From contig JAPDJW010000001.1 of NCBI GenBank assembly GCA_029258885.1, positions 1 to 64,000 on the forward strand: 64,000 nucleotides of DNA. Direction: 5' to 3'. Both the position numbers and the translations under genes were made by a program. The stretch comes from Thermoproteota archaeon. Its GTDB lineage: Archaea > Thermoproteota > Thermoprotei > Thermofilales > B9-G17. The first letter of the stretch is position 1; each line of letters opens with the position of its first letter. The notes beneath the pieces are model-generated. The model was not told the DNA's origin. It was given only the letters and a program-made list of their open reading frames with translations, and ran no database searches. Of the stretch, positions 1-47,568 are shown piece after piece.

Positions 1-1358
1 GCTGAAAATGCTACACCCATTCCATGCTCTTCAGCATATATACCTATTGCAGTCACATGCCATGGAATGTTAGGCCATCCAGTAGCCCATACTGCCATAA
101 ACTCTGCTTCTTGATTAGTATAGTTTGTATAATATTCTACAACAAGTGGATGCTCACTTACTATTCTGAGTCCTCTAAAGTTTTGACGCCAATTTCTATA
201 TCCAGGTAAAGCACTTTCATCATCTAATGGGCTGTCCGGATTAACTCTCTCCTGTCCAAAAGGCCATAAGGCAAACCAGTCGGCCAAAGTCATGACAGAT
301 CCATCATGATATTTAACTTTGCCTAGTATGTCTCCATAATTAACAACTATCTTTGCTTTAGCATATGTTCCAGGTGGAGCTGTTTCAAGTTTCTTTGTCG
401 TATAGTTCCAAGCATACCATGCATCAGTCGGCACCTCCACTTTATCAACAAACTCTAACTTTAGCCAGTCACTTGACGCTCTTGTATATACGCTTTTTTC
501 TACAACCATCGATACACTTTCGAAACGGTTAGGCATCGGAAGACCTGTATATGGGTTAGATATATAGTCAGGATCATTAAGTGTTTGTTGGACTACTGAG
601 TCATATACCCAGTTACTACCTGCTACCGGGTTCCATGGATCCACTAATACTTCTCTATTTGCAGCTCTTATAGTTCCTCCCACTTTTCCTGCAAATCTGA
701 TAGTTCTAGCCCATATTGGGTTGTTAAATCCGGATGAAAGATCTACTGCAACTTCTATTTCTTTTCTTGAAACGAATGGTGATATTTGGTCAACCAGCCA
801 TATTCGTACCGAGTCTTTAAGCTCATAAGCTATACCCTTTCTCATAAGTTCCATTCTTTCCTCCCATGTCTTCCATTCACCGTTCCAAAGTTTTAATGCT
901 ATTTCGTAGAAGACTGGATCTGGCTTGTATGCTTGCCAGAGGGGTACTGGGAATCCTAAGTTTGTATAGAAGAAACCATAATCTCCACTATCGTCTCTGC
1001 TTATTACAGTAGAAATCCAACCTCCCGTATACACATTCCACTGTCCTTCAGCTGGATTTCCGAATAACCATATAGGACTAGCTTCTCTGCTCGACTTATA
1101 CATTCTCTCAACAGTAAAGCCGAGCTTCTCAAGCTGTCCAGCTACATAATCACCTATTTGCTTTCTCTGATCTTCGATTCTTATTAGGAACCTTATTACG
1201 ACTGGTTTATCATTATAATACCATTTACCTTCTTTAAGCGTTGCTCCCATTTTACTCATTTCTTCATAGATGATTTCTTTTCCTTTTTCAAAATTGTAAC
1301 TATATTTGGCCTCAAGTAGCTTTATGACATCTGCCAGCCTACCATATTCTGGAAAATA
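1..1358 (-). CDS. ABC peptide/oligopeptide transporter substrate-binding protein (family 5), C-terminal part; 5' end missing at ~1358, 3' end runs off the window
   Basis: Hand translation is open from 1358 to 1 (FPEYGRLADVIKLLEAKYSYNFEKG...PWNPVAGSNWVYD...YHDG). In-frame TAG at 1361-1359, no N-terminal region. Not in the ORF track. Confidence 0.8.
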
Positions 1359-26111: not shown

Positions 26112-26196
26112 TGGCCCGTGGCCTAGTGGATAGGGCGGCGGCCTCCTAATGCAGGGAGATAGCCGTAGGTCGTGGGTTCGAATCCCACCGGGCCCG
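26112..26196 (+). tRNA. tRNA-Arg(CCU), 12-nt intron 26149-26160, U1:C72 mismatch
   Basis: TGGCCCG/CGGGCCC-G acceptor, GCGGC-CT-CCT-A[intron]A-GCCGT, A20, GTGGG-TTCGAAT-CCCAC. Confidence 0.92.
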
Positions 26197-26415
26197 CTAT
26201 CTGGTACTTATTTTTCTGTGGTCGTATAGTGCTCTTAACATTAGAATATCTCCAACTCTTACAGGTCCTTTCACGTTTCTGACGTATATACGGCCTTTTT
26301 CGGGTCCTTCAAGTACTCTGACCCTCACTTGTGTAACCTCGCCAGCGACACCCGTTCTACCAACTATCTGTATCACTTCAGCGGGTGTTGCATCATCAGA
26401 CACACGTTTAGACAT
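26197..26415 (-). CDS. rps28e: 30S ribosomal protein S28e (divergent C-terminus)
   Basis: [37 protein letters not shown]. Confidence 0.95.
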
Positions 26416-26864: not shown

Positions 26865-26952
26865 TTGCCCGTGGCCTAGTGGATAGGGCGGCGGCCTCCG
26901 GTTAATCGTGGGAGATAGCCGTAGGTCGTGGGTTCGAATCCCACCGGGCCCG
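26865..26952 (+). tRNA. tRNA-Arg(CCG), 15-nt intron 26902-26916, U1:C72 and U2:C71 mismatches
   Basis: TTGCCCG/CGGGCCC-G acceptor; body identical to the CCU copy except position 2, anticodon base 36, position 37 and intron. Confidence 0.9.
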
Positions 26953-26958
26953 CTTTAC

Positions 26959-46067: not shown

Positions 46068-46231
46068 CTCCTCTGCTTAAAGTCTCATATTAATAAATTT
46101 CTTATCGAAGCACTGCTATAAAAATATATTCAAATCATCAAAATCTCAGTCTTATACTAGGACTTAAAATTGTAACTGTAGACTAAGGGAGAGCGAAAGT
46201 TACATAAGGATAAGACGCACTATAAGTACTA

Positions 46232-46316
46232 GCGGGGGTGGCCGAGCAAGGTCAAAGGCGCCGGACTCAGGCTCCGGTGGCGTAGGCCTGCGTGGGTTCG
46301 AATCCCACCCCCCGCA
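46232..46316 (+). tRNA. tRNA-Leu(CAG), no intron
   Basis: GCGGGGG/CCCCCGC-A, CCGGA-CTCAGGC-TCCGG, variable arm. Confidence 0.96.
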
Positions 46317-46321
46317 TGTAG

Positions 46322-46380
46322 GGATGATCGATCAGAGTTAAGATGAACTCTTGTGATGATTAAAAGGCATTTGGGTGACC
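46322..46380 (+). ncRNA. Box C/D guide sRNA directly downstream of tRNA-Leu
   Basis: C=AUGAUCG (46324), D'=AUGA (46343), C'=GUGAUGA (46353), D=GUGA (46375), GG/CC terminal stem; guides complementary to conserved archaeal 23S segments (from memory). Confidence 0.8.
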
Positions 46381-46452
46381 AATTCTCCATCTAAGATAGG
46401 CTACTTTACTTGTGTAGCCAGAAACATATAGCTTTAACAATTAGGAACGGGG

Positions 46453-46758
46453 GTAAGCCGGCTATAGCCCGCTTTCTGTACTTGGGGGATTTATCTTGGA
46501 CCTCGGCCTCTACACGGGGATATCATCCGACCGAGGCCTGCTACAGGTTGGCCGTTTCACCCACTCCTTTAACATCGTCTGCGGGTTAGCTCGTCCCCCG
46601 TTACCGGAGAGACTTCGCCGCGGTCATTCTCATCTGTTAAAGGGGGTCTCGTTTCTGATCCAGAGCCAGGGCTCTCGCCCTACCGCCTTACGGCGGTTGT
46701 AGCCCCCGTGTAAGCGGAGCTTCCTCCGGGCGAACCCGGGCACCCCCAGCCGGCTTAC
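46453..46758 (-). ncRNA. rnpB: RNase P RNA (archaeal type A-like)
   Basis: 11-bp P1 GTAAGCCGGCT, GAGGAAGCTCCGC / ACAGAAAGCGGGCTA P4 strands, CAGAAAC and TGAAAC conserved regions. Confidence 0.95.
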
Positions 46759-46831
46759 ATTTAATTATAGATTATAGAAGTATTTTAGGCTGTCGCTTAT
46801 TCTTTTTATACACGATATTGATTTCTAATAT

Positions 46832-47341
46832 ATGCGAAGCAAGATCTATATAACAGTCATAGGCAGTAGTAAAGATATTTCTCCTAAGGTTTACGAACTG
46901 GCTGAGAAGGTTGGTTTTGAAATAGCGAAAAGAGGTGCAATTTTAGTTTGCGGCGGCAGAGGCGGAGTGATGGAGGCCGTAGCTAAGGGGGCAAGAATAG
47001 CTGGTGGCATAACTGTTGGTATATTACCAGGCGTAAGCAGAGGGGAAGCGAATCAATACATAGATATAGTAATACCTACTGGCATGGGACACGGGAGAAA
47101 TTTTCTGAATATAGTGGCTGGAGATGGCGTTATAGCTATATCTGGCGGTGCTGGCACGTTATCAGAAATTGGTCTGGCTATTGCCTATGGAAAGCCAGTT
47201 GTAGTCATCAAAGGGAGCGGAGGAGTAGCCGACCTATTGGCGGGAAAGAATATAGGTGGTACGTATATAGATTTTGCTCACACTCCTGAAGAGGCTGTGG
47301 AAAAGCTAATTAGCTTGATTAAACTCAACCAAAATAGATGA
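46832..47341 (+). CDS. LOG/SLOG family protein (TIGR00725-like)
   Basis: VCGGRGGVMEA, TGMGHGRN, GGAGTLSEI. Confidence 0.92.
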   Translation: MRSKIYITVIGSSKDISPKVYELAEKVGFEIAKRGAILVCGGRGGVMEAVAKGARIAGGITVGILPGVSRGEANQYIDIVIPTGMGHGRNFLNIVAGDGVIAISGGAGTLSEIGLAIAYGKPVVVIKGSGGVADLLAGKNIGGTYIDFAHTPEEAVEKLISLIKLNQNR

Positions 47342-47387
47342 TGAAAAGCGGGCTTAAATGATTAATGACTGAGCCTGCATCGGCTGA
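47337..47387 (+). ncRNA. Box C/D guide sRNA overlapping the LOG gene stop codon
   Basis: C=AUGAUGA 47338, D'=AUGA 47358, C'=AUGACUG 47365, D=CUGA 47384, ~12-nt guides. Confidence 0.7.
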
Positions 47388-47568
47388 TGACGCATAATGA
47401 ACTACCTTTTTTCTTCAATTTAATTTCAGCTTTCAATGGTTAGTATACAATTGTAAACAGATAGCCTTCTACCGAACGTTAATGATAATCGTCTTTATCG
47501 GCATGTTGGATCGAAAAAGTTTTTAGTTGCTTCTATGTGTAACATTTAAACCACTACGGTGATAATCC

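Follow-up and report, generated by a model that had tools for sequence, protein, structure and literature searches.

Does the short stretch behind a tRNA-Leu gene of this uncultured, Thermofilales-like archaeon encode a working guide RNA, and if so, which nucleotides would it modify and how would it be made? The initial annotation of the window, i.e., the whole stretch of 64,000 nt that was analysed, read this stretch as a box C/D sRNA with unusual but compensated boxes, probably cut from a tRNA precursor and aimed at two adenosines of 23S rRNA that are methylated in eukaryotes. We followed up this reading in the host genome and across related archaea. The locus is an ordinary, previously unannotated archaeal C/D guide with a known type of job at known hotspot sites, and is predicted from its complementarities to direct 2'-O-methylation of two subunit-interface adenosines in 23S rRNA.

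Anatomy of the sRNA

The gene order first proposed, tRNA-Leu followed by an intact C/D sRNA, is borne out by the ARAGORN and Rfam calls of the tRNA and by a match to a strict C/D scanner written for this analysis (Table 1). The scanner combines UGA cores, spacers of 11–13 nt, pairing of box C position 6 with box D position 1 (C6:D1) and of the corresponding inner positions (C'6:D'1), and a 2-bp terminal stem; it found 15 loci in the 2.1-Mb genome, including the tRNA-Leu-linked sRNA, versus one in a reversed-genome control. The sRNA displays the features of its class, with UGA...UGA cores forming tandem G.A pairs, a GG/CC stem, a D'/C' motif and two spacers of exactly 12 nt. One box had to be reassigned: GUGAUGA (46353-46359), initially read as box C', gives way to the overlapping AUGAUUA, which both homology and the 12-nt spacing favor, and the C'/D' pair (U-A) that results is compensated as well. 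The host also encodes fibrillarin, Nop5 and two L7Ae-family proteins.

Generic tools had little to say about this RNA. No Rfam family matched the sRNA at gathering score, the search returning only weak generic C/D matches (E 0.2 or worse) with sR11 as the best (16.1 bits versus a threshold of 39). Its free-energy fold was not better than that of shuffled sequences (z -1.1), which is uninformative because a protein-scaffolded RNA is expected to behave in this way. The sole open reading frame over the tRNA/sRNA stretch is an antisense frame of 53 codons across the tRNA itself.

Table 1. Positions of the tRNA-Leu/sRNA unit, its parts and other features; plain numbers are window positions, and C1 and C3 denote contigs of the host genome (G000), C3 being the contig of the sRNA.
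Feature	Position	Strand	Remarks
Likely BRE/TATA promoter of the tRNA-Leu/sRNA unit	46196-46209	+	AAAG + TTACATAA; probable, from reading of the sequence
tRNA-Leu(CAG)	46232-46316	+	ARAGORN; Rfam RF00005, 58.7 bits
Spacer UGUA	46317-46320	+	4 nt, between tRNA-Leu(CAG) and sRNA
Box C/D sRNA, double guide	46321-46380	+	60 nt, whole gene including 2-bp terminal stem GG/CC; strict scanner; covariance model R1, 66.2 bits, E 8e-13
5' stem GG	46321-46322	+
Box C AUGAUCG	46324-46330	+	C at position 6 pairs with G1 of box D
D' guide spacer	46331-46342	+	12 nt; 46332-46340 (UCAGAGUUA) pairs with 23S H69 loop
Box D' AUGA	46343-46346	+	A1 pairs with U6 of box C'; aligns with CUGA/AUGA/GUGA of orthologues
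D'-C' linker	46347-46355	+	9 nt
Box C' AUGAUUA	46356-46362	+	homology alignment; 12-nt spacing to box D
D guide spacer	46363-46374	+	12 nt; 46364-46374 (AAGGCAUUUGG) pairs with 23S
Box D GUGA	46375-46378	+	covaries with box C position 6
3' stem CC	46379-46380	+
Archaeal RNase P RNA	46453-46758	-	153 bits
Second C/D sRNA candidate	47335-47390	+	box C ATGATGA, D' ATGA, C' ATGACTG, D CTGA
tRNA	26112-26197	+	tRNA-Ile(aat) without intron mode; tRNA-Arg(cct), 12-nt intron, with introns allowed
tRNA	26865-26953	+	tRNA-Ile(aat) without intron mode; tRNA-Arg(ccg), 15-nt intron, with introns allowed
16S rRNA	C3:67677-69174		outside the window
23S rRNA	C3:69313-72455		outside the window
tRNA-Ser(GGA) and tRNA-Thr(GGT)	C3:100664-100850	+	outside the window
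Nop (Nop5)	C3:169682-170359
Fibrillarin	C3:170461-171138
RNase Z	C3:175514-176395		TIGR02651, 352 bits, above cut-off
tRNA-Leu(CAA)	C3:218212
Further sRNA candidate	C3:233502-233559	-
Further sRNA candidate	C1:23931-23986	+

Predicted targets and conservation of the two guides

The 23S segments that the initial annotation had given as complements of the two guides are present in the host's own 23S rRNA, which is encoded on the same contig, 25 kb downstream of the sRNA, and contains UAACUCUGA at C3:71437 and CCAAAUGCCUU at C3:71460, 23 nt apart. The D guide forms 11 contiguous Watson-Crick pairs (guide positions 1–11) with A2152 as the N+5 site. The D' guide forms nine (positions 3–11) with A2127 as the N+5 site in a Watson-Crick U-A pair, and its two bases adjoining box D' (positions 1–2) are unpaired with 23S rRNA. 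Both guides thus reach, in the host's own 23S rRNA, the nine or more contiguous Watson-Crick pairs around N+5 used as a criterion in Pyrobaculum (PMC6009581). Among 5000 shuffles of the guides, at least 9 bp arose 66 times for D', at least 11 bp four times for D, and at least 9 bp for both guides only twice.

Alignment to an E. coli rrl allele placed A2127 and A2152 at positions 1914 and 1939 of that allele, which we take to run one ahead of the canonical numbering, judging by the known U1911, U1915, U1917 and U1939. The sites therefore correspond to canonical E. coli A1913, in the H69 loop, and A1938, the two adenosines that the +5 rule had yielded at the outset. Their proposed eukaryotic equivalents hold up as well: yeast Ψ2258 and Ψ2260 are equivalent to E. 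coli 1915 and 1917 (PMC2794176), so that yeast Am2256 corresponds to A1913, and the 25 nt between yeast Am2256 and Am2281 (PMC11542601, table) equal the distance between A2127 and A2152. A1938 would accordingly match yeast Am2281, assuming no indel between the two positions. Two further sRNA candidates of the host genome (last rows of Table 1) have 23S targets at G2116 or G1965, G2164 and U2181, implying that H68–H71 is densely targeted in this organism too.

The sRNA belongs to a large family. A BLAST-type search of 40 relatives with tRNA plus sRNA as query matched only the tRNA part, and the sRNA was not found in the flanks downstream of the relatives' tRNA-Leu genes. A pattern of C' core, D guide and D core matched 16 of 120 genomes of the class, most matches carrying the H69 guide in the D' position, and a covariance model built from 12 pattern matches (R1, alignment A1) found the double guide in 59 of the 120. 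Listed by family, all 23 scored genomes of f4, all nine of f9 and 25 of the 27 genomes of f2, f3, f5, f6, f8 and f10–f13 had matches, as did three of 31 in f14, where the matches were weak and the D guide divergent, and none of 29 in f15. Three loci of family f14 (L105–L107, genus g36) keep the H69-loop D' guide with a different, AACAUACCCGG-like D guide, and look like cases in which one guide was kept and its partner exchanged.

Beyond the class, a two-guide pattern scan of one genome per prokaryote species returned at least 119 records, at least 116 of them archaeal and all of these Thermoproteota by title, with three bacterial records among the matches listed, about the number expected by chance. 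Carriers among the matches listed include Thermofilales, Nitrososphaeria (with Nitrosopumilales, Nitrosocaldus and Caldarchaeum), Methanomethylicia, Culexarchaeia, Nezhaarchaeales and Bathyarchaeia. The survey of Thermoproteota that the initial annotation had suggested thus revealed a double guide for the H69 loop and A1938 that has been retained in hyperthermophilic Thermofilales and mesophilic ammonia oxidisers alike, with the proviso that all counts across relatives refer to related genomes and not to independent events. A near-identical locus was also present in a DNA contig of another sample (X2 record 21); the runs containing this DNA are hydrothermal-vent and marine-sediment metagenomes.

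Within the family, the most conserved part is the core of the D' guide, CAGAGUUA. Guide changes in genus g24 are wobble-compatible, with the target unchanged, and no guide-target covariation is visible among the three genomes compared (G011, G045, G047) because their H69–H71 target segment is identical. Covariation is instead pronounced within the K-turns. At this locus C6:D1, the 4b:4n pair of the K-turn, is C-G and the inner D'1:C'6 is A-U. Among the matches listed, C6:D1 is a Watson-Crick pair in 125 of 128 distinct members with boxes in register (G-C 71, U-A 27, A-U 15, C-G 12, unpaired 3). The class-level alignment has U-A 21, C-G 13, G-C 13 and A-U 9 at C6:D1 and C-G 37, A-U 10 and G-C 9 at D'1:C'6, and the 12-member alignment UA 6, AU 5 and CG 1 at C6:D1; at class level 95% of cells pair, versus 20–48% when the partner column is slid by 1–3 columns. 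Its closest look-alikes, G005 and G012 of family f5, have the same box C, AUGAUCG, and the same inner motif, AUGA/UGAUU. The deviation of boxes C and D is therefore compensatory and preserves the K-turn, as had been proposed, and the presence of all four Watson-Crick types across the family makes such compensation real but routine. Among the 15 candidates of the genome, a non-G-C pair occurs in four at C/D and in four at C'/D', and a catalogue of K-turn and K-loop variants among archaeal sRNAs exists (PMC6009581). The non-G-C pair is thus informative on the K-turn and not unusual.

The D'-C' linker is a feature in which this sRNA departs from most of its family, with 9 nt versus 3–4 nt in 96 of 128 members (among the matches listed). 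It can be read as a mini-hairpin, with an AC/GU stem, a UCUU loop and one further base, G, before box C', which would convert the internal K-loop to a K-turn. About ten members with linkers of 7–12 nt have a layout of a 2–3 bp stem, a 3–4 nt loop, the second stem strand and one base before C', and such stem-forming linkers, apparently turning an inner K-loop into a K-turn, seem to have arisen several times; L082, L099, L103, L182 and L185 (alignment A2) are among the long-linker members, and one loop is GCGA. In addition, AACUCU (46346-46351) is complementary to AGAGUU within the D' guide (46334-46339), and pairing between the two would compete with box D'. We considered a self-inhibiting hairpin of this kind and preferred the K-turn mini-hairpin because about ten long-linker orthologues have that layout; the AGAGUU/AACUCU pairing is probably incidental.

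These peculiarities bear on whether both guides are active. Methylation could be directed by the D guide alone, at A1938, with the D' side serving as a folding aid on H69 or being inactive: its 9-bp duplex is at the lower limit and leaves positions 1–2 unpaired, its AUGA box is degenerate, its linker is longer than in most members and can pair with part of the guide, and conserved guide-target pairings without methylation have been described (PMC6009581). We nevertheless consider this unlikely, given that the D' side holds the most conserved guide core of the family, a D'1:C'6 pair that is intact here and covaries among members, a spacer of exactly 12 nt and a Watson-Crick pair at N+5. Methylation of both A2127 and A2152 is the reading that we prefer.

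Junction with tRNA-Leu(CAG) and probable route of synthesis

The tRNA-Leu(CAG) gene has no intron, ends at the discriminator A46316 and does not encode CCA. The UGUA spacer behind it lacks a T-run and is too short for a promoter, and the 40 nt upstream of the sRNA belong to the T arm and acceptor stem, which are G+C-rich and contain no A/T-rich box, so that a BRE/TATA element has no space, in agreement with the original argument. The likely promoter of the unit is centered about 28 nt upstream of the tRNA 5' end; an identical AAAGTTACATA element lies at equal distance upstream of tRNA-Leu(CAA), and similar A/T-rich boxes precede most tRNA genes in this genome (n = 40). A T-run (at least 3 T) occurs within 25 nt past the 3' end of 31 of the 40 tRNA genes, whereas the first one behind tRNA-Leu(CAG) does not appear before +53. 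The other clear exception is tRNA-Ser(GGA), which is followed after about 13 nt, with no T-run between, by tRNA-Thr(GGT); these two likely form a tRNA-tRNA dicistron. RNase Z is encoded in the genome, and the absence of CCA from the tRNA-Leu(CAG) gene, as in RNase Z substrates, counts toward processing by this enzyme.

Linkage to tRNA genes recurs among the orthologues. A same-strand tRNA lies within 100 nt in 24 of 61 class-level matches, involving seven or more distinct partners or arrangements, these genomes being related and not independent. Some junctions are both tight and independent of the one in the host: one genome (G034) has tRNA-Phe 9 nt ahead of the sRNA orthologue, and two others (G014, G018) have the orthologue 4 nt ahead of tRNA-Gly(CCC), with a TATA-like box upstream of the sRNA; in this order, a cut by RNase P would release the 3' end of the sRNA. 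The sRNA-first mirror arrangement corresponds to L087, L091 and L092 (G018, G014; about 1001-1061, minus strand), with two near-identical copies on small contigs in G018. In Culexarchaeia and relatives, tRNA-Gly(CCC) lies 11–48 nt downstream of the sRNA (among the matches listed). Orthologues without a tRNA in front mostly have a TATA-like box about 25–35 nt upstream, which is absent at the host locus. None of the other sRNA candidates of the host genome (strict scan, 15 loci) is flanked by a tRNA.

We take the junction itself to be young, because the only other genome of the host's family f1 (G001, 93% complete) yielded no orthologue (best R1 match E 0.19) and carries an ORF behind its tRNA-Leu(CAG). 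A short look-alike of the D guide in that genome lies inside the ORF and was dismissed.

The precedents invoked for such linkage in plants and Nanoarchaeum are published, and Pyrobaculum can be added to them: sR44 lies no more than 8 nt behind elongator tRNA-Met and is taken as co-transcribed, with linkage varying between species, and tRNA-linked C/D sRNAs are also known in N. equitans and plants (PMC6009581). According to the account given in the same paper, plant tRNA-snoRNA dicistrons were described by Kruszka et al. (2003), and maturation that needs only an intact K-turn has experimental support from Tripp et al.

Because promoter space and a T-run are lacking, RNase Z is encoded and orthologues show tight tRNA junctions, we judge it likely that tRNA-Leu(CAG) and the sRNA are co-transcribed, and comparative and sequence evidence favors release of the sRNA from the tRNA precursor by RNase Z. 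The sRNA might instead be transcribed independently, from an unusual start within or just behind the tRNA, its proximity to the tRNA reflecting a clustering of small-RNA genes in a scarce intergenic gap. Such a scenario would fit the concentration of tRNA-Leu, sRNA, RNase P RNA and second sRNA within 1.2 kb, the TATA-like boxes of most orthologues and the independent transcription of most archaeal C/D sRNAs (PMC6009581). It appears distinctly improbable at this locus, where the upstream 40 nt are G+C-rich without an A/T-rich box, the spacer measures only 4 nt and the tRNA unit is not ended by a T-run.

Over positions 46150-46800 we compared assembled contigs, drawn from one DNA run and three metatranscriptome runs. 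RNA contigs covered the RNase P RNA, and the T-arm of the tRNA was covered by contigs of other organisms; positions 46326-46369 were covered by no RNA contig in this comparison, which, being one of contigs, speaks neither for nor against expression. A low-depth metatranscriptome contig (X11 record 4) spans 46375-46733, from box D of the sRNA through nearly the whole RNase P RNA.

Several neighboring features were noted in the window. The RNase P RNA gene is convergent with the tRNA-Leu/sRNA unit, with 72 nt between the 3' ends. The second C/D sRNA candidate has guides matching 16S rRNA G839 (10 bp) and U781 (10 Watson-Crick pairs plus one G-U), and its box C includes the TGA stop of a 169-codon ORF (46832-47341). 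The two tRNA genes near 26 kb change identity when introns are allowed (Table 1).

Taken together, the anatomy, the targets in host rRNA, the conservation and covariation of the family and the encoded enzymes lead us to propose with good confidence a working C/D sRNA, presumably expressed from a two-gene tRNA-Leu(CAG) precursor, that has both A2127 and A2152 methylated. L7Ae, Nop5 and fibrillarin would assemble on the C/D K-turn and the internal C'/D' motif; the D' guide, bound to the H69 loop, would position fibrillarin at A2127 (E. coli A1913), and the D guide, 25 nt further along the 23S rRNA, at A2152 (E. coli A1938). The two adenosines belong to a part of the subunit interface that is poor in protein, and one RNP binding both segments probably aids folding there as well. 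Lacking its own promoter, the sRNA would most likely be transcribed from that of tRNA-Leu(CAG); an RNase Z cut after A46316 would free the tRNA for CCA addition, and exonucleases would trim the trailer to the protein-protected K-turn. That the locus is a chance look-alike or a decaying, functionless pseudogene, as its off-consensus boxes C and D and the lack of an Rfam family match might suggest, is close to refuted by the 15 scanner matches versus one in the reversed genome, the two double-guide hits in 5000 shuffles, the R1 score of 66 bits with all covarying positions paired and the near-identical locus in the DNA contig of another sample.

Comparison with known guide systems

The novelty implied by the initial annotation was overstated. 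H68, H69 and H71 are conserved methylation hotspots, with predictions dense around E. coli A1912, and for Sulfolobus and Ignicoccus guides to exactly these two adenosines are already on record (Dennis et al. 2015, PMC4644070). Directly before box D, as here, S. acidocaldarius sR125 and I. hospitalis sR109 carry the D guide AAAGGCAUUUG, and their predicted target, 23S A2204 of that alignment, is the same E. coli A1938 (PMC4644070, supplement). Both are likewise double guides with a second target in the H69 stem region; their D' guide is directed to G2172 at the base of H69, whereas that of the host is directed to an adenosine of the loop. Their boxes are nearer to consensus and, as far as the table shows, they have no tRNA link. 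S. acidocaldarius sR113 and I. hospitalis sR91 carry CAGAGUUAC before a CUGA box (PMC4644070, supplement); the listed target of sR91 is 23S A2179 of the alignment, equivalent to E. coli A1913 in the H69 loop, and we derived the same site for sR113 from its sequence. In these two, a separate sRNA carries the H69-loop guide in the D position, whereas the host has it in the D' position of the RNA that bears the A1938 guide. Neither GGCAUUUGG nor GGCATTTGG occurs as an exact 9-mer in the Dennis 2015 supplement, where shorter strings retrieved sR125 and sR109. Our literature search found nothing relevant on C/D sRNAs of Thaumarchaeota or Thermofilum.

In eukaryotes, the same two adenosines are methylated under the direction of C/D guides, namely yeast snR63 (Am2256) and snR13 (Am2280/2281) and human SNORD46 and SNORD15 (PMC2794176, PMC11542601), as two separate long single-site snoRNAs versus one archaeal double guide. 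SNORD15 gave an Rfam match over the D-guide half of the sRNA with 9.2 bits versus a gathering score of 75; there is no family-level similarity, and so faint a match is what a shared target would produce. In a bolder reading, the double-guide family would be ancient, vertically inherited and Thermoproteota-wide and could share an ancestral guide with snR63/SNORD46 and snR13/SNORD15, and its repeated fusion to tRNAs in both orders could be a selected RNase Z/RNase P maturation route rather than clustering; we regard this as rather unlikely.

The value of the locus lies mainly in annotation: an uncultured hydrothermal archaeon gains a C/D sRNA that had not been annotated, with two 23S targets assigned confidently. 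What is mildly new appears at the level of the family: both Am sites shared with eukaryotes are addressed by one RNA, Thermoproteota-wide, with a rich series of covariation at the K-turn 4b:4n pair and a recurrent, unusually frequent association with tRNA genes. Cultured relatives (Thermofilum, Infirmifilum, Nitrososphaera, Nitrosopumilus) would allow tests of the methylations, of K-turn assembly with a non-G-C pair and of maturation through tRNA processing. If co-transcribed, the sRNA would be a further natural example of a guide RNA carried on a tRNA transcript. Pyrobaculum sR44 and the cases from N. equitans and plants resemble it in that a C/D RNA gene follows shortly after a tRNA 3' end, and differ in the tRNA, the sRNA family and the targets; unlike in those cases, the orthologues of the host sRNA are linked to several tRNAs and in both gene orders.
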